The translations under genes and the position numbers were made by a program. From an uncultured Gammaproteobacteria bacterium (GTDB lineage: Bacteria > Patescibacteriota > Patescibacteriia > UBA9934 > GWF2-40-263), in NCBI GenBank assembly GCA_964402425.1, contig CAYOCD010000003.1, positions 4,608 to 68,607 of the forward strand: DNA of 64,000 nt, given 5' to 3'. The notes below the pieces were generated by a model. It ran no database searches, had not been told where the DNA came from, and was given only the letters and a program-made list of their open reading frames with translations. The stretch's first letter is position 1. Every line of letters begins with the position of its first letter. Positions 1 to 63,837 of this stretch are shown one piece after another.

Positions 1-743
<743 letters not shown>

Positions 744-797
744 TTAGATTATAGCATGCACAAACAAAAAAACCGACAAAGTCGGTCAGGAGAATAG

Positions 798-1061
798 TTA
801 TGCGGCGATCGAAGAAGCAGAGGAATTGCCAAAGAACGTGCGACGGGGTTTGGGAGCTTCAGAGACCTCGTAGCCAAGCGTGCGTTCAATCAGTTGAATC
901 CGTTCCATGCTGGGCTGCAACTTACCGCTGCACCACTTATTCACGATCCGCTTGGGATCTACGTCATATCCGTGAACTTTGAGTTCGCGAGCAAGGTCTT
1001 CATTTGACCAACCACGCAATCGCATGGCTTGAACCAACAGCACTCCGCTAAGTCTGCGCAT
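798..1061 (-). CDS. XRE-family helix-turn-helix transcriptional regulator; start taken at the internal ATG (MRRLSG...) preceded by AAGGAA
   Basis: ORF 798..1100 contains an HTH-like segment LLVQAMRLRGWSNEDLARELKVHGYDVDPKRIVNKWCSG. It lies downstream of a TTGACA-17-TATAAA promoter on the same strand. Confidence 0.5.
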   Translation of the reverse strand: MRRLSGVLLVQAMRLRGWSNEDLARELKVHGYDVDPKRIVNKWCSGKLQPSMERIQLIERTLGYEVSEAPKPRRTFFGNSSASSIAA

Positions 1062-1116
1062 CGAGCATTCCTTTGTAAAGAGAACAAAAGCGCCAACCAC
1101 TATGATTGACGCTTGG

Positions 1117-1145
1117 TTTATACGTGATTTTTAAACGCATGTCAA
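1117..1145 (-). promoter_or_regulatory. sigma70-like promoter: TTGACA, 17-nt spacer, TATAAA
   Basis: The reverse complement of 1117-1145 reads TTGACAtgcgtttaaaaatcacgTATAAA. It sits immediately upstream of the HTH gene. Confidence 0.5.
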
Positions 1146-1154
1146 TGGATTTCC

Positions 1155-1655
1155 CTATTCACACACGCCAGCCGCCATTTTTCCAGGGACTGCACAATTA
1201 ATCCCTTTTTGAAGTCCGGCACCAGGCAAACTATTTTCTAATTCAAATTGAATAGCATATGCATCACCTTGATTTAAGGCAGAATAACAAAACGCTTTAC
1301 GTGCCGGAGTTCCGCACGCAACTTTTCCAGGCAACCCCGCTTCATACGTACGAGGAACAATTCTGATAATCGTGGCCGTTTCTGTAGAACAGTCCGCATG
1401 AAAACCCGTAACACTCAAACAGGCACTTTGTGCTGAATCACCAAGTGGCATCAATTCACCATCGGGATAGGTGTTATTTTCATTAAAATAATCTTCGAGA
1501 GCCGTTTGAATTTGTCGCACATTAGATAAACGTGTTGCATCGCGTTGTTTTGATCTTGCGGATGTCACCGCAACAGACGCAAGTACGCCAACAAGCGCAA
1601 TAATAGCAACAACAACGAGAATTTCTACAAGCGACACTTTTGGTTGAAGATCCAT
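1155..1655 (-). CDS. Type IV pilin-like protein with a prepilin-type N-terminal hydrophobic domain
   Basis: The N-terminus KVSLVEILVVVAIIALVGVLA resembles the class III signal/N-methylation segment, with Glu at +5 of the hydrophobic block. The C-terminal part has paired Cys residues (CLSVTGFHADC, CGTPARKAFC), as in pilin D-regions. There is no Gly before the hydrophobic segment, which is atypical. Confidence 0.55.
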   Translation of the reverse strand: MDLQPKVSLVEILVVVAIIALVGVLASVAVTSARSKQRDATRLSNVRQIQTALEDYFNENNTYPDGELMPLGDSAQSACLSVTGFHADCSTETATIIRIVPRTYEAGLPGKVACGTPARKAFCYSALNQGDAYAIQFELENSLPGAGLQKGINCAVPGKMAAGVCE

Positions 1656-1656
1656 A

Positions 1657-2040
1657 CTACTTGCTACTTACTACTTTTTTAATACGTTTAACAATTTCCG
1701 TGACAGAATGTTCTCCTTTGCGGAACATAGCACTTCTTGAAACACGTTTCCAGACACCGACAGTTTTGCGTGTAAGGTCAGCCGTATGCAAAATGAGCGT
1801 TCGGGTTCCCTCAGCTGTTTTATCGACAAGTTTTACAAGGACTTCTTCTGGTTGAAGTTCTTTTACAGGATCAATCAGCACAACATCACTCGGCTTTCGA
1901 CCAAGCAACTTCTCTGCCTGATCCACATTTTTTACAGACCGAACCGTCCAGCCGTCTTTTTCAAAACGCTTCGACAAAATATCCGCAAGATGCGTATCTG
2001 GATCAACAATAAGAAGTGAGGGTTTCTTTTTTGGAGGCAT
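1657..2040 (-). CDS. Response-regulator receiver (CheY-like) domain protein
   Basis: KPSLLIVDPDTHLADIL...SDVVLIDP shows the acidic pocket and a phospho-acceptor Asp-like pattern. The start is taken at MPPKKK inside ORF 1657..2103. Confidence 0.6.
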   Translation of the reverse strand: MPPKKKPSLLIVDPDTHLADILSKRFEKDGWTVRSVKNVDQAEKLLGRKPSDVVLIDPVKELQPEEVLVKLVDKTAEGTRTLILHTADLTRKTVGVWKRVSRSAMFRKGEHSVTEIVKRIKKVVSSK

Positions 2041-2041
2041 A

Positions 2042-3130
2042 TTAATCCATTTCTCGCATCGCAAGCCCAACAGCAACGGCCATACGAGGACCAATTTCTT
2101 CAAGGACCACTGCTAAATCTTTTGGATACACAACGCGCGCCCAAGGATCGCCGCGATACACATTCATATTTAATGTTTCCGATAAATATTCAGGAACATG
2201 TGAAAGATACGAAGATCCACCCGTGAGAATAATTTTCTCCACACGCTTCAATTCCGTCAATTCCATGTTTGCGTATAATTGAAACGCAAATCGGATTTCA
2301 TTCACAATCGGTTGCATGATCGGCTCTAAAATTTTTGGCAATGTACCATTTCCTCCAGCAATGCCCAAATCACGCTTTGCGCGTTCAGCATCATCTTCTG
2401 TGATCTGCATCTGTTCCATCATGCGCTTTGTTACGGAATCACCACCCAAATTAATACTTCGTGAGACAAACGGAATTCCCTTTTCTACAATAAAAACATT
2501 CGTGCGTTTTGAACCCATGTCTAAAATCATGATCGCTCCTTTATCTTTTCCAATAAGAGCACGAATAAGCGCAAAGGATTCCGTATCAATCGCTTGTAAA
2601 TTTATTTTTGCTGTTTTAAAAATTTCAATATACTTTGAAACAAGTGTCTTTGCAGCACCCGTCACAAGCACACGTGTATATTTATCTTTCTCCTCTTTTG
2701 CTTTTCCGGATTCTCGAACCTCTCCAAGCTTCCCTTCTCCATCAATGGTTGTAGAATAGGTGATCATTTCTGAAACAGGAATAGGTGCGAGTTTTCCGAG
2801 CTCTGCGTCAATCAATGTTTTGACCATTTTTGGATCTTTTGACTTTGGCAAAGAAAGGATGGTGGAAAAAACGGACGATGTCTGAAGAGCTGTCATGGCC
2901 TGTAATGCCTTAACATCTGCCTCTTTACACACGCGCGCCAAAAACTCACCTGATTTTTTGGGTTGGTCAAAAAGTCCATCACCTCCATTTTGTGGAGGTA
3001 ATTCTAAGTATCCATACGTCATGAGACGCGCACGCCCTTTTTCATTTGCAAGCTCGACAACCTTAATACTGCTTCCCCCAATATCAACCCCAAGAAATGT
3101 TTTTGATTTTGATGATCCAAAGAGTGACAT
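2042..3130 (-). CDS. pilM: Type IV pilus assembly protein PilM (actin-like ATPase fold)
   Basis: The 362-aa product begins FLGVDIGGSSIKVVEL... and ends ILTGGSSYL, an FtsA/PilM-like architecture. It neighbours the pilin and receiver genes. Confidence 0.8.
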   Translation of the reverse strand: MSLFGSSKSKTFLGVDIGGSSIKVVELANEKGRARLMTYGYLELPPQNGGDGLFDQPKKSGEFLARVCKEADVKALQAMTALQTSSVFSTILSLPKSKDPKMVKTLIDAELGKLAPIPVSEMITYSTTIDGEGKLGEVRESGKAKEEKDKYTRVLVTGAAKTLVSKYIEIFKTAKINLQAIDTESFALIRALIGKDKGAIMILDMGSKRTNVFIVEKGIPFVSRSINLGGDSVTKRMMEQMQITEDDAERAKRDLGIAGGNGTLPKILEPIMQPIVNEIRFAFQLYANMELTELKRVEKIILTGGSSYLSHVPEYLSETLNMNVYRGDPWARVVYPKDLAVVLEEIGPRMAVAVGLAMREMD

Positions 3131-3139
3131 AGTACACGC

Positions 3140-3148
3140 ATTATAACA
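3140..3148 (-). promoter_or_regulatory. Extended -10 element (TGtTATAAT) about 9 nt upstream of the pilM ATG, giving a near-leaderless transcript
   Basis: The reverse complement of 3131-3150 reads cgtgTTATAATgcgtgtactATG. There is no SD. Confidence 0.4.
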
Positions 3149-3180
3149 CGAGTATTTCGTCTGTGGTATACGGGAGTTAA

Positions 3181-3210
3181 AAAAGAAAAAATCGCCCTAA
3201 GTGGAGCGAT
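3181..3210 (-). terminator. Rho-independent terminator after the 3212..4147 gene
   Basis: Hairpin atcgccctaagtggagcgat followed by a T-run on the minus strand. Confidence 0.5.
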
Positions 3211-3211
3211 G

Positions 3212-4147
3212 CTAGCAAGACTGTGTCCTTCGATTCCCATCCAAAATGAGCAACGTGGGATATTTTGTTTCGACAAATTTACCCGTCTTTGGATCTTGTC
3301 GATGATAAATCATCCCTTTTTCTGCATTCATTTCATCTATTCGAATTGCCAATTCTTTTGCGGAAGAAAAATCCGATTCTAACTGAGACCAGAGAAAAAG
3401 GTGTGCCCACACACGGAAACGAAACTCCAACGTGACAATTTCTTGTACAAAACCTCTTGCCTCAGAATAATCAAGACCATAATCCTTGTCGCGATTAACC
3501 AAACACGCAACAAACGAACTTAGTTGATAGTCACGCGACCGATCAGATTCAATTTCCAAGATCCATTGACGCCACTTAAGGTAGTCGATATCACGAAGAT
3601 CTGGAAAACCAAGACGACTTATCGATGGAAATAGCTTGTTGATCATTTCACATCTTGCATGATCTCTGTTCCTTTGATCTAAAATATTTCCTACGCACAT
3701 CCACGCCTCGTCACCCTTCTTTTTTCTGGCCAAATAAAGGACAACATCCAACCAAGCTGTATCGCGCACATGTTCGGCCCTGATCTGCTCAATCCAGATC
3801 TTTGCCTCTTCAATGCGATCCATTTCAAGCAATGTCCTTATGATTTTATCCACAGCCGAATCACGAGAAAAACGATCAGGAATTTCATTTGCGACCTCAA
3901 GCGCCTTATTCAAATCATTTAGGTGGACCAGAATTTGAATTCGCTTTTCTGCCACCTTTAGGGCGGGGAGATTATTAAGAAACTCTTGAACATGCTCTTC
4001 ACGACGAACCTCGCGTCGAAAGACAGACAAAAAGAAACGTGTAGTCCTTGAACGAAGTTGTGCAAAAAACTTCATGACCACTCCTAAAAAGAACAAGGTC
4101 CCGTGATTGGGACCTTGAAACATAATAGAAATTCTGAAATTCGTCAA
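3212..4147 (-). CDS. Hypothetical protein
   Basis: 311-aa ORF separated by only 5 nt from the rnhA stop. No motif recognised. Confidence 0.45.
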   Translation of the reverse strand: MTNFRISIMFQGPNHGTLFFLGVVMKFFAQLRSRTTRFFLSVFRREVRREEHVQEFLNNLPALKVAEKRIQILVHLNDLNKALEVANEIPDRFSRDSAVDKIIRTLLEMDRIEEAKIWIEQIRAEHVRDTAWLDVVLYLARKKKGDEAWMCVGNILDQRNRDHARCEMINKLFPSISRLGFPDLRDIDYLKWRQWILEIESDRSRDYQLSSFVACLVNRDKDYGLDYSEARGFVQEIVTLEFRFRVWAHLFLWSQLESDFSSAKELAIRIDEMNAEKGMIYHRQDPKTGKFVETKYPTLLILDGNRRTQSC

Positions 4148-4152
4148 GGTAT

Positions 4153-4587
4153 TTACCTCCCCTGTTTATCCAACACTTCATTCACGAGCGCATCCGCAGC
4201 CTTGTTGAACTCTCTGCGTACATGTTTGATTTTGACATGATCAAACTGTGCGATCAGATTTTTCACTTCCAGAAATCGTTTTGCAATCTCTGGATTTTTC
4301 ACTTTATATTCCCCTTTTAATTGTTTCACTGCGAGCTCAGAATCCATACACAACTCAATGGTTTCTGCACCGAGTGACTTTGCCTTCTCAAGTCCAATCA
4401 CAATCGCCGTATATTCTGCTTGATTGTTTGTATCTTTGCCAAGGTGCTTTGATGCCGTAGCAACAACCTCACCGTCTTCAGAATACAAAACCGCACCACT
4501 TGCCGCAGGCCCAGGATTTCCGCGCGATCCACCGTCTGTAAAGATTTTAAGATGGGAATGTTTGGACATAATATTATCAAGCACCAT
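4153..4587 (-). CDS. rnhA: Ribonuclease HI
   Basis: IFTDGGSRGNPGPAASGAVL...NNQAEYTAIVIGLEKA...REFNKAADALVNEV match the RNase H catalytic DEDD pattern. Confidence 0.85.
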   Translation of the reverse strand: MVLDNIMSKHSHLKIFTDGGSRGNPGPAASGAVLYSEDGEVVATASKHLGKDTNNQAEYTAIVIGLEKAKSLGAETIELCMDSELAVKQLKGEYKVKNPEIAKRFLEVKNLIAQFDHVKIKHVRREFNKAADALVNEVLDKQGR

Positions 4588-4608
4588 TTGGCACCTATCC
4601 TTAATCCG

Positions 4609-5664
4609 TTATTGATTAATCAAATCTCCTTCTTCAAATTGATCTAAAAATCGTGCAGAAACTTCATGGACATTTTTATACTGCCATCCATGTGTCATCA
4701 TGACTCCATGTGAACCAATGTGCCGTTTTTCTTTCCGTTCAATGCGATAAATTTTTTGTGAACCGCGAATCCTGACGAGTGCAGGTAACACGATCGAAGA
4801 TTCAGCTGTTATGGGACTGTAACCAGAGGAAACTTCCATGCCATCAAGAAATCCATCCTGATCAGTATCAGGCACATAAAGATTCGTTCCCTGTTCTTGT
4901 TCTTGTGTCTTTGATAACCCATCCTGATCTGCGTCACTCTGAGCGGACGTTGTCAGAACGGAAGAGGTAAATAACATATTCTTTGCTCTGTGTCCCGTTG
5001 CGTTTGGATAATCTAAGTTGGATGCGAGAAGTGATTGCACACGAAACACAATTCTCTCTCCAAATTTTGTTCCGGGATCATTTGCGTAAAATTCCATTCT
5101 GTCACGATCATATCCAACAAGAACAATCACATGATACTCCGGTGCGGGACTCTGATAATTTGCGTTTGCAAGCAATCGACCATTCACAGGAACAACCACT
5201 GGGCGATGTGCATCCAATTCTTTCACGATCGATTCAAAATCTGGATTCTCAACAACATGAGCTTCATAGGACAAATACCCATTGACCAATCGCATCATTA
5301 ATTCTGTACTTGTATCTTTATTAAATCCAAAAATTTGATCTTCTAATGCAACCATCTTTTCAATACGCTGCTGAATCATCTTTTTATCTGAAAAATCCTG
5401 TTTTTGATAATACGCTTCAACCATGAGCAAAACCGTTTCTTCGCATGCATCTTTAAACGGCTGCACCCAGGATCCATTTGGAATTTGAATGGAAAACGGA
5501 ACGGCTAATTTTATTTTGCCATACGCTGTTGTAAAGAGGGCAAAATAAAGAATGCTGGAGATCGCAATTCCCCATCGAAAAAGATGTTTCTTGTGTTCTC
5601 TTATGTTGTGCACAAAAAAACGAATCAATTTTCTCAAGTTCAAGAAGACACGTATGGATATCAA
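4609..5664 (-). CDS. Membrane-anchored peptidase C39-like domain protein with acidic Ca-binding-like DxDxDG repeats
   Basis: N-terminal TM segment. A Cys (FKDACEET) and a His (EYHVIVLVGYD) are arranged as in C39-like/BtrH-type peptidases. The C-terminus carries DADQDGL...DTDQDGFLDG motifs. The ATG overlaps the recJ stop (ATGA). Confidence 0.5.
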   Translation of the reverse strand: MISIRVFLNLRKLIRFFVHNIREHKKHLFRWGIAISSILYFALFTTAYGKIKLAVPFSIQIPNGSWVQPFKDACEETVLLMVEAYYQKQDFSDKKMIQQRIEKMVALEDQIFGFNKDTSTELMMRLVNGYLSYEAHVVENPDFESIVKELDAHRPVVVPVNGRLLANANYQSPAPEYHVIVLVGYDRDRMEFYANDPGTKFGERIVFRVQSLLASNLDYPNATGHRAKNMLFTSSVLTTSAQSDADQDGLSKTQEQEQGTNLYVPDTDQDGFLDGMEVSSGYSPITAESSIVLPALVRIRGSQKIYRIERKEKRHIGSHGVMMTHGWQYKNVHEVSARFLDQFEEGDLINQ

Positions 5665-33317: not shown

Positions 33318-33392
33318 TGGTGCGCCGGGCGGGGATCGGACCCGCGACCTTGGGCTTAAAAGGCCCCTGCTCTACCACTGAGCTACCAGCGC
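33318..33392 (-). tRNA. tRNA-Lys (anticodon UUU)
   Basis: Minus-strand sequence GCGCUGGUAGCUCAGUGGUAGAGCAGGGGCCUUUUAAGCCCAAGGUCGCGGGUCCGAUCCCCGCCCGGCGCACCA. The anticodon loop CUUUUAA is identical to E. coli tRNA-Lys, and CCA is encoded. Confidence 0.85.
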
Positions 33393-54784: not shown

Positions 54785-55342
54785 TTATGGAGCGAGAAAA
54801 ATCGGCAAGATGAATTGATCATCAAATGTTGATTCCCCAGATGGATTATCTTTTTGAAAAATCAACGAATACATTCCCACCATGTCCAACCGTTGATCCC
54901 CTGCGACTTCAAATGTGATCTCCCCGTTGAATGGAACAAAATCTGTTGTCATCCAATCACCGTCTGCCTGCATGATCTCTGTTGCAATGAGTTCTCCTGC
55001 TGGATTTAAAAGCTTCACCGGAAAACTCGCCTCAAAAAACCATGTTCCGCGCGCACGACCCGCAATCTTACAGGTCGTCTTTGGAGACTGAAGATAACAA
55101 ACGGGAACAGATGAATTTTCATCTGTACGCGGCAATGTTATTTCAAGAAGATCTTTGTAAGACATTGGGGGTGTTTCTTGTGTAGGTGTTGGGGTTTCCG
55201 CTCGCAATGCCGTTTCATCCGTTACGGGTCTTATTTGTGCAAAACGCGTTACATTCATACGATAGACAAACAACCCAACGGGGACTAAACTCAACATGAT
55301 CAAAATGAAAATATATACACGTTGTTTGTGATTCATATACAA
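54785..55342 (-). CDS. Membrane-anchored hypothetical protein, possibly a Gmad2-type Ig-like domain
   Basis: N-terminal TM; a beta-rich C-terminal domain (WFFEASFPVKLLNPAGELIA...GEITFEV). The family assignment is tentative. Confidence 0.4.
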   Translation of the reverse strand: MYMNHKQRVYIFILIMLSLVPVGLFVYRMNVTRFAQIRPVTDETALRAETPTPTQETPPMSYKDLLEITLPRTDENSSVPVCYLQSPKTTCKIAGRARGTWFFEASFPVKLLNPAGELIATEIMQADGDWMTTDFVPFNGEITFEVAGDQRLDMVGMYSLIFQKDNPSGESTFDDQFILPIFLAP

Positions 55343-55372
55343 ACATCATACAATATCCATACTCAATCGCCT

Positions 55373-56503
55373 ATGTCATCCCCTATCAAAACACGTGCCA
55401 TCTCCTTTTTATATCGTTTTGTCCTCAAGCCAATCTTGTTTCGTTTTGATGCACAAGATGTTCATGATTCTATGACGTTTTTTGGTGCACAACTTGGCAA
55501 ACAAAAATGTTTCCGAACCCTCACATCCCTCTCATTCAATTTCAAAAACGCATCACTGCATCAAACAATTCTTGGAATCGATTTCAAAAATCCCATCGGT
55601 CTTTCTGCAGGTTTTGATTATCGCGCACAACTCACAGAAATTCTTCCGTCCATCGGAATGGGATATGGCACTGTCGGAACCATCTCAAACAAACCCTATA
55701 ACGGAAATCCAAAACCTATGCTCGGACGTCTCCCAAAATCAAAATCACTTTTGGTGAACAAAGGATTTAAAAATGACGGAATCGACGCACTCATAAAACA
55801 GCACCAAGGAAAAACGTTTTCTATTCCCATTGGTCTCTCTCTCGGAAAAACAAATCAAAAAGAACCCATGACACAAGAAGAAGCCGTTCAAGATGTTGTT
55901 AACGCATTTAAAAAAGCCGTAAACGCAAATCTTTCCTTTTCGTATTTCGAACTCAATATCTCTTGCCCAAACTTGATCGGAAACATTTCTTTTTATCCCA
56001 CAGAAAATCTCAAACAATTATTAACCGCTCTCGCAACCATACAGATCCATAAACCCATCTTCATCAAAATGCCCATCACGGAAACAGATGAAGCAACAAG
56101 ATCCATGCTCAAGACCATCGAACCATTCCCTTTCATCAAAGGGGTCATTTTCGGAAATCTTTGGAAAGACCGCTCGAGTTCTGATTTTGATACGGAAGAA
56201 ATCACCAAAGCAACCAAAGGAAACTTTTCCGGAAAGCCAACATTTACTCGATCAAATGAACTCATTGCCCTTGCCTACAAAGAATTCGGTCATCGATTTG
56301 TTGTTATCGGATGTGGGGGTGTCTTCAGCGCAGAAGATGCATATAAAAAAATTCGCCTTGGTGCATCCCTTGTTCAAATGATTACAGGCATGATTTATGA
56401 AGGTCCACAAGTTGTGGGAGAGATCAATCGTGGACTTGTTGCGTTTTTGAAACGAGATGGGTTTGTGGCTATTTCAGATGCGATTGGAGTTGATGTGAAA
56501 TAA
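55373..56503 (+). CDS. pyrD: Dihydroorotate dehydrogenase (class 2-like)
   Basis: GLSAGFD, LNISCPN, GNLWKD...GKP, VIGCGGV are DHOD family motifs. Start taken at MSSPIKTR. Confidence 0.8.
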   Translation: MSSPIKTRAISFLYRFVLKPILFRFDAQDVHDSMTFFGAQLGKQKCFRTLTSLSFNFKNASLHQTILGIDFKNPIGLSAGFDYRAQLTEILPSIGMGYGTVGTISNKPYNGNPKPMLGRLPKSKSLLVNKGFKNDGIDALIKQHQGKTFSIPIGLSLGKTNQKEPMTQEEAVQDVVNAFKKAVNANLSFSYFELNISCPNLIGNISFYPTENLKQLLTALATIQIHKPIFIKMPITETDEATRSMLKTIEPFPFIKGVIFGNLWKDRSSSDFDTEEITKATKGNFSGKPTFTRSNELIALAYKEFGHRFVVIGCGGVFSAEDAYKKIRLGASLVQMITGMIYEGPQVVGEINRGLVAFLKRDGFVAISDAIGVDVK

Positions 56504-56526
56504 AAAAAGACCTCACAAGAGGTCAG
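56504..56526 (-). terminator. Terminator after tdk (gacctcttgtgaggtc plus a T-run on the minus strand)
   Basis: Seen directly. Confidence 0.5.
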
Positions 56527-57116
56527 GAAGAGAGAGGATCGATTCTCATCGAATCGCTGGAATGAACAACGCCATTTGGCGGAACGAAGCACCGAAAACA
56601 GCGCGGTTCGTATTTGTCTTCGCCACCAACTTCTTCTACAGTCTGATTGTCTGTAAGACGTTGTGAGCGCGTCCCCTCAAGACTTCTGCATTGTGCGCAG
56701 ACAGCCTTAAGTTTATGGACATCATTTGCAAGACTCATCATCTTTGCCACAACAACAAACGGCTCTTCACGAAAATCAAGGTCAAGTCCTGCGACTAAAA
56801 CACGTTTTTCCATTCGCAAGAGCTGTTTGATCACATCGATCAGATCTTCTTCAAAGAACTGCGCTTCATCAAAACCAATCCATTCATATGCATCAAGCAC
56901 ATGATCAAAAATCGCCGATGCACCTGAAATGAAAATAGTGTCCCCCGTAAACTCACTTCCAGAACGAACCTTACGCGTGTCTTTTGTGGGTCGAACAAGA
57001 AGAACTTGAATGTGCGCAATACGCCCGAGTTCCAATTGCCCAATCAAGGCACGTGATTTACCGGACCACATGGAACCGGTATACACGATCAATTCCGGAA
57101 TCTGTGGACTTCTCAT
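56523..57116 (-). CDS. tdk: Thymidine kinase
   Basis: P-loop YTGSMWSGKS, IGFDEAQFF, and the C-terminal Zn ribbon CAQC...CFRC. Confidence 0.85.
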   Translation of the reverse strand: MRSPQIPELIVYTGSMWSGKSRALIGQLELGRIAHIQVLLVRPTKDTRKVRSGSEFTGDTIFISGASAIFDHVLDAYEWIGFDEAQFFEEDLIDVIKQLLRMEKRVLVAGLDLDFREEPFVVVAKMMSLANDVHKLKAVCAQCRSLEGTRSQRLTDNQTVEEVGGEDKYEPRCFRCFVPPNGVVHSSDSMRIDPLSS

Positions 57117-57307
57117 TTGGATCCTCCAGCACATAGCCGCGATCATTATAACGCATCAAGTTCAAAACACCTGTGGACAAAAATCCTTCACGCCCCTCCG
57201 ATTTTTTAGACCTTGCACCTCTTTACAACTTATGGCATTCTATTCTCTAGCCAGCCCTGTTCGTCGTAATAGGACGGTGTCATTAATTATTGTGTCTTGT
57301 TTCTATT

Positions 57308-57571
57308 ATGAACAACAAGCTTTTCGTAGGCAGCATTCCTTGGAAAACAACGGAAGATGACCTTCGCGCCGCATTCGGCGAATTCGGAACAGTCGTTTCA
57401 GCTCGTATTATCACAGATAAATTCACAGGCAAGAGTCGCGGATTTGGCTTTGTGGAAATGTCGAATGATGAAGAAGCGCAAGCGGTTATTGCAGGTCTTG
57501 ATGGAAAAGATTTTCAAGGACGCCCAATTGCTATTTCCGTTGCACGTCCAATGGAAAACAAAGCAGCATAA
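57308..57571 (+). CDS. RRM-type RNA-binding protein
   Basis: RNP-2 LFVGSI and RNP-1 SRGFGFVEM. Confidence 0.8.
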   Translation: MNNKLFVGSIPWKTTEDDLRAAFGEFGTVVSARIITDKFTGKSRGFGFVEMSNDEEAQAVIAGLDGKDFQGRPIAISVARPMENKAA

Positions 57572-57581
57572 TAGTACACCA

Positions 57582-57615
57582 AAAAAAACACTCCGCCTTG
57601 GCGGAGTGTTTTTAT
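57582..57615 (+). terminator. Rho-independent terminator (cactccgccttggcggagtg plus a T-run)
   Basis: Seen directly. Confidence 0.65.
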
Positions 57616-57616
57616 A

Positions 57617-57645
57617 TTGACATCTTCTAAAAATCATTTTATGCT
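57617..57645 (+). promoter_or_regulatory. Promoter (TTGACA, 17-nt spacer, TATGCT)
   Basis: TTGACAtcttctaaaaatcatttTATGCT. Confidence 0.45.
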
Positions 57646-57675
57646 TTCGTCTTCGTTCTTTTCAAAGAGGTGCAA

Positions 57676-58321
57676 TTTGGAACTAAAACAACTGTTTATG
57701 TACCCAGTTGGGGCCTATCTTCTTGCGCATGATGCCACAACACAACAATGGGTAGGAGCGTTTTGTTGGAGCGGTGAACAAATCTTTCGTGTCATGAGCA
57801 AATGGAATATCTCCACTGATCAAAGCATGGAAATAACCACCAGACTTAATAAACCTGAGTTTGCTCTTGTTCCAAAAACAAACGTGCGTCAACCTATCTA
57901 TATCGATGGAATGATCGCTATGCGTATTGCACAACAGTTTGATCATGTTAACACCCTTTATCAGATAGGGGTCGGAAAGCAACTCGCTGCATTCCCTCCT
58001 ATTCCACCAGAACAAATCATCGTCTGTGTTGTTGACATGGACACACAGACAGATCGAGCTGCCGCTCTTTTCTACACAGATCCCGCAGGAACGCCAAACA
58101 TGGTGATTATCCGCAATCAACTTCAAAGTCTCACAGTCCTCTCGTTTGATTGGATGGATGAAGAGCAAAAAGCTTCTTGTCAAAACCATTTGAAACATCT
58201 TCCTGTAATGGGAGATGATGATCTCGAAGTTCCCATCCTTGTTCAAGGAGAAATCGTCAAACTCTTGATTGCCAGCTTTGTCACTCACAACACAATAGCG
58301 TCCGTCAATCAACACAGCTAA
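57676..58321 (+). CDS. Hypothetical protein, paralog A of the 60663 gene
   Basis: Shared blocks: YPVGAYLLAHD...GAFCWSGEQI vs YPTGTFLLGRD...GVFCWSAEQI; AAALFYTDPAGTP vs EAALLFYITPKGE. The start is ambiguous (TTG after AGAGGT, or the ATG at 57697). A terminator follows. Confidence 0.5.
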
Positions 58322-58350
58322 CGCAACAGCCGCAACGGCTGTTTTTTATT
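58322..58350 (+). terminator. Rho-independent terminator (acagccgcaacggctgt plus a T-run)
   Basis: Seen directly. Confidence 0.6.
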
Positions 58351-58411
58351 GACGTAATATGGTTCTTCTGTTTAAATCCATCGTCGATCAACACGACAAG
58401 AGGACATCAAC

Positions 58412-59155
58412 ATGCATCGCATCTTGGATCTCGGCAAACAAAAGCCATACGATAAAGAACCACCAAACGCATGGGTGTTTCGCGTCCTTGATCTGGATCC
58501 GAAAGACTCCTCCGGAAAAGAACTTCGATCGTACGGTGGCCGATTGTATTATGGATTTCCACACGCATCCATCCAATCCTTTACTTGTCTGCGCAATTGT
58601 TCGTATGAGGTTCAATTAGCCATTGAATCATGGATGGAGTTTACATCTGTTCCAGATGATCATTCCCGCGCCGCACTCATCGTCATTTTGGATCAAGATG
58701 AAAGAGCAATCTTGCTACAACGGAAGGATCTGAGGCACCCAAATCCTGCGTGCCGTGGACGCTATTCCCTTTTTGGCGGCTCGCCACACATTGGAGAAAC
58801 GATTCATCACGCCGCTCTTCGCGAACTTCTAGAAGAAATTCGCGAACCAGAATTGGAACGGTATTTAGATCAAATGAAACATGTCGATGATCTGATTCTA
58901 GATTCTGTTCAATGGCCAGGAGAATTTGTTGCTTCGATCTTTTTCTTACCCCTCCCAAACACGATATTCATGAAGCTTGCGATTCGAGTCGCCTTTCAAA
59001 ACAATGTATCCGAATCTGTCGGTGCACTAATCACCCGAACAGAGTTCAATCAAATTCTTTGGTCACAAGAAATTCACGAACCCGGACATCACTTTGTTGC
59101 CTCACATCATCTGGCAATTGAGCGAGTGCTCGTCTCACTCTCACATGATTCGTAA
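58412..59155 (+). CDS. Nudix-hydrolase domain protein with an N-terminal extension
   Basis: Nudix box GSPHIGETIHHAALRELLEEI (Gx5Ex7REuxEE, with the last Gly replaced). TTGACG-17-TTAAAT promoter, AGAGGA SD, and its own terminator. Confidence 0.55.
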   Translation: MHRILDLGKQKPYDKEPPNAWVFRVLDLDPKDSSGKELRSYGGRLYYGFPHASIQSFTCLRNCSYEVQLAIESWMEFTSVPDDHSRAALIVILDQDERAILLQRKDLRHPNPACRGRYSLFGGSPHIGETIHHAALRELLEEIREPELERYLDQMKHVDDLILDSVQWPGEFVASIFFLPLPNTIFMKLAIRVAFQNNVSESVGALITRTEFNQILWSQEIHEPGHHFVASHHLAIERVLVSLSHDS

Positions 59156-59210
59156 ATCCCATACACTCACCACTGTTTCAAAAGAAACGGTGTTTTTTTA
59201 TTTTATTTGA
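59156..59210 (+). terminator. Rho-independent terminator (caccactgtttc aaaa gaaacggtg plus a T-run)
   Basis: Seen directly. Confidence 0.55.
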
Positions 59211-59321
59211 CCATGTAAGCAACAGAGAATCCTTCCGACCTCCATTGACAAAAACAAGTTCTCGTCTTATTGTGTTGCGTCGCTTGTTCTTTCTCTTTCA
59301 AACAACCTTACAGGAGGTTTT

Positions 59322-59909
59322 GTGAGCACACCCCAAAATATTTTGCTTGTTGTTCAAACACCAGATCATGAAGGTACTGGCCATGAATTCCTTGTAGGAA
59401 GGATGGACTTCGCCAAGTTTGATCGAAACGTGTGGGAAAAAGGAAAATCAGACGAACTGATTCTTGCTCTTGCCCTCATGAAACAACAAGGGGTCGGTCA
59501 CTGCCGCGCTGAAATTGACGTAGGAACATTTGTTCAATCCATGCAAGAAAGAAACGATGACGTTGAGCGAGTTAAGCTTGATTTCGCCCTTCCCACTCCA
59601 GATGAAGTTGCAAATGCAGCCTTGCGCAGGGACAGAGCGATTATTGCGAAACAAATCACTAATTTCGAAATGCGCATTGATGGGTGCAATAAATTCATTG
59701 CCTCCACAGAAGCCAAATTGGAAGCATATCGTACGCACCTCAAGCAACCGAACCTCCTCGTCGGAATTCGCCTTCATTACGAACACGTATTGATTGCAGA
59801 CAAAATAACAGATCTCCATGTCGTGCGAAACGAACAGAAACAAACCTATCAGAATCTGAAACGAGCACTCGCTTTGCAAAAGCGACTAAATGACAAAAAA
59901 GAGACCTGA
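59322..59909 (+). CDS. Hypothetical protein (GTG start after a perfect AGGAGG)
   Basis: TTGACA-17-TATTGT promoter at ~59244-59272; SD AGGAGGtttt then GTG; a terminator follows. Confidence 0.5.
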   Translation: MSTPQNILLVVQTPDHEGTGHEFLVGRMDFAKFDRNVWEKGKSDELILALALMKQQGVGHCRAEIDVGTFVQSMQERNDDVERVKLDFALPTPDEVANAALRRDRAIIAKQITNFEMRIDGCNKFIASTEAKLEAYRTHLKQPNLLVGIRLHYEHVLIADKITDLHVVRNEQKQTYQNLKRALALQKRLNDKKET

Positions 59910-60029
59910 CAAATTCAAATCTTTCGTTCTTCATCACTCATACATTGAGTGATTTTTCTTTTTACTGTTCTTTGACACAAACAAAAAACATCGATACTGT
60001 CATCCCAGAGAAACAACACGAGGTGTCGT

Positions 60030-60566
60030 ATGATTTCGCCCTGGATCTCTCTTCTGTATTTGTGTCTCGCGATTATTGGTTCCATCTTTCTTGCTCGTTA
60101 TCTATCAAGAAAGTCCTTTCCAAAATTACGAAACACAGAAAATTCAAAGAAGGCATTTATCAATTACAACTGGAATGGGCTCATAGTGCAATTTAACGCA
60201 ACACATAAAGATCTCAACGCAGATCGTCTTGATCGTGCCTATAAGGTCTATCACCGCATCATGGTTCTCGCCTACCACAGAAACCTCCTCAGAGAAGAAG
60301 GAGATCCTCATGTACATCGCATCGCACCATTCGATAAAGATGTAGACATGTTCTGGCGACTTCACGCTTCTCAACCAGACTACGATGCGTGGTGCGAAGC
60401 GTGCTTTGGTGGTCAGATGCGTCCTCGTGTCGAAACCTATGAAGAACCTTTGTGGCAAACACTCGAAGAACGTCAAGCAACAAAACTTGCCTATAAAAAG
60501 AAATACGGTCTCCTCTCAAACACAAATTCAGATGACGGTTTCATTCCACCTGTCATCGTTGTATAA
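60030..60566 (+). CDS. Hypothetical membrane-anchored protein
   Basis: N-terminal TM; GAGGTG SD; TTGACA-17-TACTGT promoter; its own terminator (cacgtccatcgggacgtg plus a T-run). Confidence 0.5.
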   Translation: MISPWISLLYLCLAIIGSIFLARYLSRKSFPKLRNTENSKKAFINYNWNGLIVQFNATHKDLNADRLDRAYKVYHRIMVLAYHRNLLREEGDPHVHRIAPFDKDVDMFWRLHASQPDYDAWCEACFGGQMRPRVETYEEPLWQTLEERQATKLAYKKKYGLLSNTNSDDGFIPPVIVV

Positions 60567-60662
60567 ACTCTTCACGTCCATCGGGACGTGTTTTTTTATC
60601 CATCACTTTGACAGGACAAACAGATCTGATAACGTCTCTGCTACACATCTCGAGGTCTTCTC

Positions 60663-61292
60663 ATGCAACTCGTGAATGCGCACATTTACCCAACGGGAAC
60701 TTTTTTGCTGGGCCGCGATCGTAAAAATACTCCACACGGAGTCTTTTGCTGGAGCGCGGAGCAAATTGCCCTCATTGCAAGTGACTGGCGACTCACACAA
60801 AAAGACGAAAGACGTCTTGGAGAAATTCTCTTAAAAGAAGAGATTTCGATAACAGCAAATCAAGAGCCGCAGCTGATACACGGAATTGGTGCCGCGCTTA
60901 TCGATGAGCAATTCAAAACCCTGCAAAACATACGCGATATAACAAAGCCAGGAACAACCATTCCTCTTACACGGGCCCAAATCTACCACCAAGTCCTTTC
61001 GCATAAACCGCAAGAACAAGAAGCAGCTCTTCTGTTCTACATCACCCCAAAAGGTGAAGCCACACTTGCTCACATACGAACACAAGACCAAGCTGCTGAA
61101 TTGTTCATGTGGGAAGATTGGATGCAAGAAAGTGGAGTCGAGATCATTCACAGCGCGATGTGCATTCTTCCTGAAAACGATCGATTCAATCAACACATTA
61201 CATTCGTATGTGGGGATCTGATTCAACAGCTCATTACGGCACAGGTCATTTACCGACAATTCTTTCCCGAGGACTCAACCGCCAAAAACTAG
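60663..61292 (+). CDS. Hypothetical protein, paralog B of the 57676 gene
   Basis: See paralog A. GAGGT SD 5 nt upstream; TTGACA-16-TAACGT promoter; a terminator follows. Confidence 0.5.
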   Translation: MQLVNAHIYPTGTFLLGRDRKNTPHGVFCWSAEQIALIASDWRLTQKDERRLGEILLKEEISITANQEPQLIHGIGAALIDEQFKTLQNIRDITKPGTTIPLTRAQIYHQVLSHKPQEQEAALLFYITPKGEATLAHIRTQDQAAELFMWEDWMQESGVEIIHSAMCILPENDRFNQHITFVCGDLIQQLITAQVIYRQFFPEDSTAKN

Positions 61293-61365
61293 GCGGTTTT
61301 TTCTTTATTCAATCCCCCATGGAATCATTGACGAATCTCGTTTTACCTGTTATCCTTCGCCCATT

Positions 61366-63165
61366 ATGAAAGACTTTCGAAATATTGCGATTATCGCTCA
61401 CGTTGACCATGGAAAGACCACGCTTGTGGACGCCATGCTCAAACAGTCCGGAACGTTCAACGAACGTGACGTTATTGAGGTTTGTGTCATGGATTCAAAC
61501 GAACTTGAAAAAGAACGTGGAATTACCATTTACGCAAAAAACACTGCCATTCAAATTGGCGACACAAAAATCAACATTGTTGATACTCCGGGTCACGCAG
61601 ACTTTGGTTCAGAGGTAGAACGCGTTCTCCGTATGGTGGACTCTGTTTTGTTGCTTGTGGACGCCTATGAAGGCCCAATGCCACAAACCAAATTCGTGCT
61701 TCGTAAGTCACTCGCTCTTGGGTTGAAACCGATTGTTGTGATCAACAAAATCGATAAACCATCCGCTCGTCCAGACGTTGTGCTCAACATGATTTTTGAC
61801 TTGTTCGTAGAACTTGGCGCAACAGATGAACAACTCGATTTCAAACATATTTACGCCATTGCGCGTGAAGGTGTTGCAAAAATGGAACTTACAGATGATT
61901 CTAAAGATCTTCAACCACTTTTTGATCTTATCCTCAAAACCGTTCCGCCAGCACAAAACAACACAAACGTCCCAATGCGCATGCAGCCTGCAAACCTTGC
62001 GTATGATTCTTACATCGGACGTCTTGCGGTTGGACGCATTTATGAAGGAACTGTTCGTGCTGGAATGACCGTCACGGTCATTACCCCAGACGGAACACGC
62101 AAAACAAATAAAATTACAAAACTTCTCACAAACAAAGGATTAAACAAGATTGAAGTAGAAGAAGCAGAAGCAGGAGACATCGTTCAGATTGCGGGAATCC
62201 CAGATATTTATGTGGGAGACACCATTGCAGAAAACGCAACCGCAGAACCATTACCAAGTATCGCCATTGACGCTCCAACCTTGAAGATGGACTTCATGGT
62301 GAACAACTCCCCTTTTGCTGGACGTGAAGGAAAACTTGTGACCTCTCGTCAAATTCGCGAACGTTTACTCAAAGAACTTGAAGTCAACGTTGGAATGAAG
62401 ATTGAATTTTCAGATTCCGCAGATGTCTTCACAGTGAGTGGTCGCGGAGAAATGCACTTGTCCATTCTTATTGAACAAATGCGCCGCGAAGGTTTTGAGC
62501 TTCAGGTTTCTCAACCGCGCGTTATCTTCCATGAAGAAAACGGTGTAAAACAAGAACCGATTGAAATCGTTGTTGTAGATGTTCCAGATGCCCTTGCCGG
62601 AATCGTGATCGAACAACTCGGAAAACGCCGTGGAGAAATGCTTAACATGCAATCAGAAAACGGAAGCACACGTTTGGAATATCATGTTCCAACACGCGGA
62701 CTCCTTGGATACTCTTCTGAATTCGTGACAAGTACAAAGGGTGAAGGAACCCTCTCCCACCAATTCGCCCACTATGGCGACTTCAAAGGAGATATTGAAC
62801 GCCGCTCAACCGGATCCATTATCAATGGATTTGACGGTGTGACAACTCCATACGCCCTTGAGGGCCTTGAAGCTCGTGGTGTTCTCTTTGTTGGTGCGGG
62901 TGTAGAAGTTTATGAAGGAATGGTAATTGGAATGTCCATGAAGGACAACATGGTGGTAAACGCCATCCGTGAAAAGAAACTCACCAACATGCGTTCCGCC
63001 GGTGCAGACATGGCCGTAAAACTCACACCAGCTTTGGACATGACTCTTGAACGCGCGCTTGAATACATTGATCATGACGAACTCGTTGAAGTCACACCAA
63101 AAAATGTACGTATTCGCAAAAAATATTTGAAAGAATTTGAACGCAAGAAACACGGCGTTGCGTAA
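61366..63165 (+). CDS. typA: Translational GTPase TypA/BipA
   Basis: NIAIIAHVDHGKTTLVD...DTPGHADF and the BipA-specific C-terminal domain (599 aa). Confidence 0.95.
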   Translation: MKDFRNIAIIAHVDHGKTTLVDAMLKQSGTFNERDVIEVCVMDSNELEKERGITIYAKNTAIQIGDTKINIVDTPGHADFGSEVERVLRMVDSVLLLVDAYEGPMPQTKFVLRKSLALGLKPIVVINKIDKPSARPDVVLNMIFDLFVELGATDEQLDFKHIYAIAREGVAKMELTDDSKDLQPLFDLILKTVPPAQNNTNVPMRMQPANLAYDSYIGRLAVGRIYEGTVRAGMTVTVITPDGTRKTNKITKLLTNKGLNKIEVEEAEAGDIVQIAGIPDIYVGDTIAENATAEPLPSIAIDAPTLKMDFMVNNSPFAGREGKLVTSRQIRERLLKELEVNVGMKIEFSDSADVFTVSGRGEMHLSILIEQMRREGFELQVSQPRVIFHEENGVKQEPIEIVVVDVPDALAGIVIEQLGKRRGEMLNMQSENGSTRLEYHVPTRGLLGYSSEFVTSTKGEGTLSHQFAHYGDFKGDIERRSTGSIINGFDGVTTPYALEGLEARGVLFVGAGVEVYEGMVIGMSMKDNMVVNAIREKKLTNMRSAGADMAVKLTPALDMTLERALEYIDHDELVEVTPKNVRIRKKYLKEFERKKHGVA

Positions 63166-63237: not shown

Positions 63238-63837
63238 CTAAAGCTGACCAATGAGCCAATCGCATACTTGAAAATCGCCTTGTGTATGCAATTTACGGAA
63301 GGCACGAAGCCGATCAACAAAAACCGTACGAAGAGCTGTTCCATGTCCGACAAGAACAATCGTGGGGTACTCGTCGCAACATTGTTGCTGTAAACGAAAT
63401 GCTTCATTGTCGATCGTTCGCATGACACGAAATGCAACATCATCTGCGCACTCTCCACCAATGTCTTGATAATCATAATGTGCATGACTGGATCGATGCC
63501 GACGTTCTGGAAATGAAACAAGCGCGTCCGCTTTCGTCATGCCTGTCATGCGACCCATATAGACCTCCCGCAATTCTTCCGAGGACACAATCAACGGAAG
63601 CTCTTTGCAGGCACGAGCAATCTCATGTGCAACCGAACAAGAACGTAATAAATCTGAACTCAGAATCTGTTTCACAATAAACAATGAGGCGATCTTTTGC
63701 GCGAGCTGACGCGCTTGTTCTAAACCGACTTCATTCAACAACACATCGTTCTGTCCAGAATAGATGTTCTGAACATTATCGTCTGTTTGCGTATGACGAC
63801 AAATCACTAAACGAACTCGAGCTTCACGTCCAGGCAT
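63238..63837 (-). CDS. Histidine phosphatase family protein (phosphoglycerate-mutase-like)
   Basis: LVICRHTQTDDN is an RHG-type catalytic motif, with a second His in LVGHGTALR. Confidence 0.7.
   Translation of the reverse strand: MPGREARVRLVICRHTQTDDNVQNIYSGQNDVLLNEVGLEQARQLAQKIASLFIVKQILSSDLLRSCSVAHEIARACKELPLIVSSEELREVYMGRMTGMTKADALVSFPERRHRSSHAHYDYQDIGGECADDVAFRVMRTIDNEAFRLQQQCCDEYPTIVLVGHGTALRTVFVDRLRAFRKLHTQGDFQVCDWLIGQL

Follow-up and report, generated by a model that had tools for sequence, protein, structure and literature searches.

What holds five neighboring genes together when each appears to carry its own promoter, Shine-Dalgarno (SD) site and terminator? The question is raised by genes A to E, five open reading frames (ORFs) on the + strand of a stretch of 64,000 nucleotides from contig CAYOCD010000003.1 (assembly GCA_964402425.1), hereafter the window, which comes from an uncultured bacterium placed in the Patescibacteriota. 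The genes fill the slot that opens with a thymidine kinase gene (tdk) and a gene for an RNA recognition motif (RRM) protein and closes with typA. We consider it somewhat better than an even bet that they form a vertically inherited, clade-restricted cluster in a slot of variable content between the RRM gene and typA of Candidatus Uhrbacteria, and that they are neither an operon nor a mobile or defense element.

Genes A (57677-58321, 214 residues) and E (60663-61292, 209 residues) belong to the A and E clades of one orphan protein family, here called the A/E family. Between them lie gene B (58412-59155, 247 residues), which encodes a Nudix hydrolase, the orphan gene C (59322-59909, 195 residues, with a GTG start behind AGGAGGT) and gene D (60030-60566, 178 residues), whose product has an N-terminal membrane anchor. 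The original prediction described five co-directional ORFs, and this stands; only the start of A has to be moved, by one base, from 57676 to the TTG at 57677 (SD GAGGTG, 57667-57672), because the N-terminus that begins there aligns with E and with the orthologs of A.

Predicted signals of independent transcription

We propose that each gene is a unit of its own, in which a sigma-70-type promoter (-35 TTGACA, a spacer of 16-17 nt and a -10 resembling TAnnnT) would drive a transcript with a leader of about 20-45 nt that includes an SD, and an intrinsic terminator would close that transcript. With a promoter, an SD and a terminator for every gene, the expression of each protein could be set independently, and the sequences of the signals suggest that expression of each unit is probably strong. 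The gaps upstream of A to E measure 90-166 nt, compared to a median of 33 nt for co-directional genes in the window, and all are laid out in the same order: a GC-rich hairpin followed by a T-run, TTGACA or TTGACG, a -10-like hexamer 16-17 nt further on, the SD and the start codon. A polycistronic operon does not fit these gaps, each of which holds both a putative terminator and a putative promoter.

Homologous loci in other assemblies are designated by L-numbers; L001-L005, from other samples, carry the identical locus, and the remainder have diverged. The first gap opens with a hairpin at the end of the RRM gene (57584-57613) that has fully complementary (100%) 14-bp arms and an A-run and a T-run at its sides. 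It has counterparts in L007, L008, L014 and L016, and its sequence is that of a bidirectional terminator predicted to close the RRM gene and insulate A. The putative promoters, all on the + strand, follow a common plan. Promoter A (57617-57645, TTGACA-17-TATGCT) is kept in L008 and L007 as TTGACA/TTGACG-17-TATGCT/TATTCT, and promoter B (58349-58377, TTGACG-17-TTAAAT) reads TTGACA-17-TTAAAT/TTATAT in L007, L008 and L014. Promoter C reads TTGACA-17-TATTGT (59245-59273) and promoter D TTGACA-17-TACTGT (59972-60000). Promoter E (60608-60635, TTGACA-16-TAACGT) has an extended -10 (TG at 60627-60628), and the block ATCTGATAAC, which includes this TG, is kept in L007, L008, L012 and L013. The putative terminators, again on the + strand, lie at 58325-58343 for A (an 8-bp stem, then TTTTTT), 59171-59192 for B, 59933-59953 for C, 60573-60590 for D and 61277-61298 for E, the last overlapping the final five codons and the stop of its own gene. 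This overlap explains the conserved ...TARN end of proteins in the E clade. Across the A/E family as a whole, the last residue is Asn in 22 of 33 clusters and Ser in 7 of 33, including members at about 20% identity in which the preceding residues vary.

The contrast with the rest of the contig, which had been part of the original prediction along with the claim that every one of the five genes has a promoter, an SD and a terminator, is borne out by counts. A TTGAC(A/G) promoter and a terminator occur together at 5 of 5 genes in the set and at 4 of the remaining 60 in the window (Fisher p=1.5e-5). An SD stands at a plausible start in all five (GAGGTG, GAGG, AGGAGGT, GAGGTG and GAGGT, in the order A to E) and in about 8 of the 60 others. 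Terminator-like sites are enriched in themselves (20 found, 9.9 expected from shuffles, standard deviation 3.2); a generic promoter scan taken alone gave no excess, with 16 sites against 14.1 expected from shuffles. The hairpin with its T-run, the TTGAC(A/G)-16/17-(-10) arrangement and GGAGG recur before the orthologs in L007, L008, L012, L013, L014, L016 and L017, in intergenic DNA that has otherwise diverged between these relatives. Of the evidence that the predicted signals function, this conserved footprint is the strongest.

According to a published survey (PMC9297842), the anti-SD motif is missing from a subgroup of Parcubacteria, and the scarcity of SD sites in the window fits such a loss. 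The conservation of the SD sites of A to E implies that the anti-SD is still used in the source genome. This use is not confined to orphan genes, as SD sites also lead tdk, the histidine phosphatase gene near the end of the window, an RNase H/RVT_3 gene (4153-4587, - strand) and a small HTH_3 gene (798-1061, - strand). We therefore discarded the idea that SD-led genes are always orphans.

One slot, variable content

The locus is bordered by housekeeping genes on both sides, with tdk and the RRM gene upstream and typA and a histidine phosphatase gene (His_Phos_1) downstream, and these four are syntenic in the loci of relatives. All loci share the slot between the RRM gene and typA, but not its gene content. 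The slot holds A-B-C-D-E in the window and A-B-C-D-E-X in L008, where X is a further gene. In L007 it holds A, two small genes, B, a tRNA-Thr and tRNA-Lys pair, C, E and X, and in L013 two small genes, B, the tRNA pair, C, D, E and X. L012 and L022 have B-C-E, and L010 has E alone. E is the family member kept most often among relatives. In L014, L016, L017 and L026, which carry more distant members of the A/E family (about 23-28% identity), the member is again the first gene past the RRM gene; next come a B-type Nudix gene in L014, a 102-residue gene and then a B-type Nudix gene in L026, a 120-residue gene and then a C-like gene in L016, and a PAP2 gene in L017.

An A/E member, a B-type Nudix gene and C occur together in 6-8 of the 11 diverged loci. 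The homologs are thus not scattered singly, which would have told against the earlier proposal of a co-located set; they are linked in one slot of related genomes, and the set is restricted to one clade. What did not survive is the notion of a paralogous pair flanking a Nudix gene as a design, since A is missing in L013, L012 and L022 and E stands alone in L010. Identity to relatives is 40-67% for the genes in the slot, 46-50% for tdk and 96-98% for typA. From these arrangements we suggest that the ancestral order was tdk, RRM, a family member, further genes and typA. In the lineage of the window, B, C and D would then lie between the two old paralogs A and E, and the relatives of that lineage would have gained or lost single units.

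Several elements of the slot were seen in relatives only. Gene X encodes an acidic protein of 263-269 residues and lies between E and typA (L007 8672-9463, L008 8672-9481 and L013 6679-7485); it is cleanly missing in the window (61293-61365), L010 and L012. In the loci with X, the terminator hairpin of X contains the -35 hexamer of typA. The pair of tRNA-Thr(tgt) and tRNA-Lys(ttt) genes lies between B and C with a TTGACA promoter of its own (L007 7048-7220 and L013 4279-4451). The window has no tRNA at this place; its tRNA-Lys(ttt) is 25 kb away, at 33318-33392. Finally, relatives insert a gene for a small membrane protein (90-111 residues), a gene for a protein of about 102-120 residues, or both, before the Nudix gene and after the first family member or the RRM gene (L007 5464-6104, L013 2633-3325, L016 1846-2208 and L026 5584-5892). 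No such insert is found in the window.

Composition and mobility

The region of A to E is native by composition. Its GC content of 0.43-0.445 lies within the range of the window (0.37-0.48), and GC content at third codon positions is within about 1 standard deviation of the other genes. The distance in relative synonymous codon usage is 0.5-1.4 standard deviations above that of genes of comparable length. We attribute this slight rise to strand bias, because typA, which shares the strand, shows a rise as well. Foreign composition is thus rejected.

We considered a mobile island or prophage remnant and rejected it, as the five genes contain no integrase or transposase domain, flanking or attC-like repeats are absent and composition does not deviate; variable content is the sole island-like trait of the slot. 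An integron cassette array, which would consist of promoterless cassettes with attC sites of 57-141 nt and an adjoining intI, was rejected as well: the hairpins measure 18-30 nt and end in T-runs, the genes have promoters of their own, no ORF resembles intI and gene order is kept in relatives. In searches of phage and plasmid collections, the A/E family had no relatives in PHROGs or IMG/VR (by pattern scan), and E had none by tblastn against phages and plasmids. B had nothing in IMG/VR and only generic Nudix matches in PHROGs. C and D had no match in PHROGs, the sole such collection against which they were checked.

An orphan protein family with an internal duplication

Genes A and E were predicted to be paralogs, and they are (BLASTP E=2e-19, 32% identity across 163 residues). 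A rough neighbor-joining tree suggests that the split between them is old. The family is small. Among 5.8 billion proteins, clusters at 90% identity number 13 for E and 7 for A. A family profile gave 16 matches among 1.84 billion representatives, of which two, the giant proteins P0033 and P0034, were rejected as repetitive Ig/FIVAR-like surface proteins that matched spuriously, leaving about 14 clusters. The family occurs in 3 of 185,579 species genomes, all three labeled Candidatus Uhrbacteria, and in 6 further metagenome loci. Its homologs bear the name Candidatus Uhrbacteria and come from groundwater and lake metagenomes, and the window itself is assigned to this group.

Seven positions are nearly invariant (G26, C29, W30, G74, L169, P170 and G184). 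The AlphaFold2 model of E has a mean predicted local distance difference test (pLDDT) score of 87.6 and a predicted template modeling (pTM) score of 0.85, and in it the order of three strands, two helices, a strand and a helix occurs twice. When the N-terminal and C-terminal halves were aligned as profiles with hhalign, they matched at 93.5% probability (E 2.3e-7), with [ST]-x-[ED]-Q ... W ... [LI]-P ... P-x-x-I-x-G in both. The repeated order of elements together with this match between halves identifies the A/E proteins as internal tandem duplications of a domain of about 100 residues.

The earlier impression that this family belongs to no recognized domain is upheld: it has no match in Pfam, NCBIfam, PHROGs, PADLOC or PDB sequences, and 23 members scanned one by one had no Pfam family in common. 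The model of E gave no significant match among PDB and BFVD structures (best BFVD E 0.011, TM-score 0.22). Its best structural neighbors are the ribosomal protein cS23/PSRP-3, eL28-like folds and NTF2/SnoaL-like proteins; these matches span only a quarter of E and come without sequence similarity, and E, as a tandem beta3-alpha2-beta-alpha duplication, is unlike all of them. The conserved residues (G, W, P and one Cys) look structural, unlike a catalytic set, and the A/E proteins, in which the beta3-alpha2-beta-alpha domain occurs twice, most likely serve in a non-enzymatic binding or scaffold role. With a mass of about 24 kDa, isoelectric points of 5.1-5.5 and N-termini that are not hydrophobic, we infer that they are acidic cytoplasmic proteins. 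Because the model is confident, the internal duplication clear and PDB and BFVD hold no neighbor, the family is a cheap target for structure determination or an interaction screen.

The Nudix hydrolase and genes C and D

The Nudix box reported for B, set against the consensus G-x5-E-x7-R-E-U-x-E-E-x-G-U, lies at residues 123-143. Across the 22 clusters of the B family, G123, E129, R137, E138 and E141 are invariant and E142 is present in at least 90%. The terminal G-U of the box is replaced, so that it ends in EEIR, and the catalytic REx2EE is intact. B also matches PF00293 at 42.2 bits (cutoff 21.1; E 1e-10) over profile positions 2-72 of 134, and it has the alpha/beta/alpha fold; box, profile and fold all place it in the Nudix superfamily. 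To this core B adds a clade-specific N-terminal extension of about 80 residues and C-terminal helices with the motif PG..F.ASHH, which mark it as a new Nudix subfamily.

By these features B would be a catalytically competent diphosphatase that cleaves a substrate linked through a nucleoside diphosphate; it would resemble CoA pyrophosphatases faintly in sequence and Nudix enzymes of the ADP-ribose type in fold. The nearest solved structures are 3dup, 3i9x, YfcD (2fkb) and the NrtR/ADP-ribose pyrophosphatase type. By sequence, the nearest is the CoA pyrophosphatase of Deinococcus radiodurans (1nqy/1nqz), and 1nqy, the best match in PDB, reaches only E 0.023 and 17 bits. RNA-acting Nudix enzymes rank below ADP-ribose-type and uncharacterized ones among the matches. 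No NCBIfam equivalog came near its cutoff. CoA pyrophosphatases of the NudL/NUDT7 type carry the upstream signature LLTxR[SA]x3[RK]x3Gx3FPGG (PROSITE). B reads LLQRKDLRHPNPACRGRYSLFGG at this place, with Q for T, a longer spacer and LFGG for FPGG, and we rejected this subfamily for B. The most distant B-like Nudix protein, at 33% identity over its full length, is encoded in L025 on a contig of GC 0.56, in a stretch (686-5002) that also carries genes for an ATP-dependent ligase, a CxxCxxCC protein and a TnpB/Cas12f-like protein beside it.

Gene C encodes a globular N-terminal region and a C-terminal part that is presumed from its sequence to be a coiled coil (a weak match to DUF7310 has E 0.061), and its product would likely oligomerize. 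Its residues 4-73 (59331-59540) align marginally with residues 68-135 of Escherichia coli MobB (PDB 1p9n/1np6; phmmer E 0.0016, 21 bits; NCBIfam NF008021 E 0.029), with TPD..E..FL..RMD..K.D in common. The P-loop half of MobB is missing from C, and we treat this likeness as a lead only. Gene D had been called membrane-anchored, and a hydrophobic helix at residues 4-22 (Kyte-Doolittle average over 19 residues, 2.11) agrees with this; the protein would be tethered to the membrane. Its strongly conserved block reads APFDKDVDxFWRxHAxxPDYDAWC...FGG, and the protein had no database match. The pattern DVDxFWRxH...P.Y..C..FG may resemble the plant GRDP/DUF1399 proteins, a tentative lead; hmmscan gave no such match, and the literature yielded nothing of use on it. 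Weak matches reached through orthologs of C and D (Phytochelatin, DUF1168, TSNAXIP1_N and others) were inconsistent, and we rejected them. By hhalign, the A/E, B, C and D families showed no homology to one another, nor the A/E family to the extension of B (probabilities of at most 0.5%).

Weighing the alternatives

The most serious alternative is that A to E are no module at all. They would be unrelated genes, young or evolving fast, that collect in a permissive hotspot between conserved genes, each an autonomous unit like the morons of prophages and with no shared function. The unit-wise turnover of the slot keeps this explanation serious, and we still regard it as improbable. A, D, X, the pair of small genes and the tRNA pair come and go singly among relatives, the families of the slot lack cross-homology, and every unit looks transcriptionally insulated. 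Against this, an A/E member with B, C or both persists in most lineages, including the distant L014, L016 and L026. The invariant residues of every family and the confident folds predicted for A/E and B show that these are real genes and not decaying or de novo ORFs.

Somewhat less probable still is a module for RNA metabolism or stress, in which B would be a pyrophosphohydrolase or decapping enzyme for RNA 5' ends and the A/E proteins would be ribosome or RNA factors acting with the RRM protein and TypA, for example in cold or starvation. Family members lie directly downstream of the RRM gene wherever that flank is known, even at 23-28% identity, typA closes the slot, and each gene has a strong-looking promoter of its own. 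This adjacency is equally well explained by synteny, as tdk, dihydroorotate dehydrogenase (pyrD) and His_Phos_1 are conserved alongside. The acidity of the A/E proteins is unusual for RNA binders, and the ranking of Nudix matches given above does not favor an RNA-acting enzyme. Rfam finds no element in the region; a search in it for regulatory RNAs in the leaders returned sub-threshold matches only, on the terminator of the RRM gene. A role tied to the RRM protein and TypA would draw on adjacency and weak structural echoes. We give a little less credence to the most specific version of this idea, which would make A/E a new fold, a tandem beta3-alpha2-beta-alpha arrangement found only in Uhrbacteria, that joins the Nudix enzyme, the coiled-coil protein, the RRM protein and TypA in a module acting on RNA 5' ends or on the reduced ribosome of Candidate Phyla Radiation (CPR) bacteria.

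The original prediction had raised an anti-phage defense or nucleotide-signaling cassette around the Nudix enzyme, which we now consider highly improbable. Nudix domains are known in some conflict systems, content differs between close relatives and the partner proteins are orphans. However, PADLOC-DB 2.0 gave no family for A, B, C or E, and for D only TniQ_IB at E 0.016 and 12.8 bits, a chance match; no effector or sensor domain, such as a nuclease, TIR, SLOG or cyclase, was found in the five proteins, A/E and B lack relatives in IMG/VR, and E lacks them in phage and plasmid collections. The genes also sit in the same housekeeping slot in all genomes and have native GC content and codon usage. 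Secreted effectors were also suggested earlier. None of the roles in the original prediction gained support, and surface or secreted effectors for an episymbiotic CPR lifestyle are equally improbable: the anchor of D, the small membrane proteins that relatives add to the slot and the clade-specificity of the genes are suggestive, but Nudix enzymes are as a rule cytoplasmic, A, B and E are acidic, and A, B, C and E lack a signal-like or hydrophobic N-terminus, their most hydropathic segments lying inside predicted globular folds.

Several points weigh against our preferred reading of a vertically inherited, clade-restricted cluster. The joint presence of A/E, B and C is indistinguishable from the effect of inherited synteny, because tdk, the RRM gene, typA and His_Phos_1 are syntenic too; any functional coupling among the genes is conjecture. 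The unit-wise gain and loss of genes and the tRNA pair resemble the behavior of an island, so that some horizontal input is conceivable, and a B-like Nudix gene at 33% identity sits in an unrelated context of 56% GC with a ligase and a TnpB-like gene. The model of the A/E fold was built on only 20 sequences, and the lack of a structural relative holds for PDB and BFVD. The nearly invariant Cys29-Trp30 could be catalytic or ligand-binding, counter to a scaffold role. Lastly, the promoters, terminators, transcription units and expression levels are ones that we infer from sequence.

Neighboring genes and other features of the window

Upstream of the slot lie pyrD (55322-56503), tdk (56523-57146, - strand) and the RRM gene (57290-57571), the last directly upstream of A. 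Downstream of E come typA/bipA (61366-63165) and the His_Phos_1 gene (63238-63837, - strand). At typA (61328-61368), a TTGAC(A/G)-17-TATCCT sequence ends 9 nt before the ATG, no SD is present, and the geometry is the same in L007, L008, L010, L012 and L013. This suggests that the typA mRNA is leaderless or nearly so. The dus gene (17304) and a glycosyltransferase gene (50999) have a similar promoter arrangement.

A second autonomous unit lies on the - strand at 39081-37950, where TTGACA-17(TG)-TATATT is followed by two SD-led ORFs (39011-38553 and 38525-38001) and a hairpin with a T-run. Both ORFs encode membrane proteins that lack Pfam matches, and the signals are in the style of those of A to E. 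Every 2-kb bin of the window (1-64000) has a negative GC skew on the + strand (-0.03 to -0.20), and the monotonic cumulative curve indicates that no replication origin or terminus lies within the window. Upstream of 42 kb the - strand carries most of the genes; A to E are on the C-rich strand.

Comparison with known systems

The kind of feature described here, monocistronic sigma-70 units and a Nudix enzyme among them, is ordinary; its members are undescribed, and the locus overturns no current view. CPR bacteria have many clade-specific proteins of unknown role, few of which have been examined gene by gene. The locus offers a clean, conserved set of predicted sigma-70-type promoters, SD sites and intrinsic terminators in a setting where most genes lack an SD, and such signals could be useful for the annotation of Patescibacteria and eventually for engineering.

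B shares the core G-x5-E-x7-RE-x2-EE with the Nudix superfamily throughout its 22-cluster family; about 135-150 of its 247 residues superpose on solved Nudix structures, at 9-22% identity. As a whole, the locus resembles the moron-type units and chromosomal variable regions in which each gene has its own promoter and terminator and whole units are present or absent in a constant slot. Unlike moron-type units, A to E are found without a prophage, an integrase, flanking repeats or a compositional anomaly, and gene order is preserved among their orthologs, whose divergence is close to that of tdk (40-67% compared to 46-50% identity).

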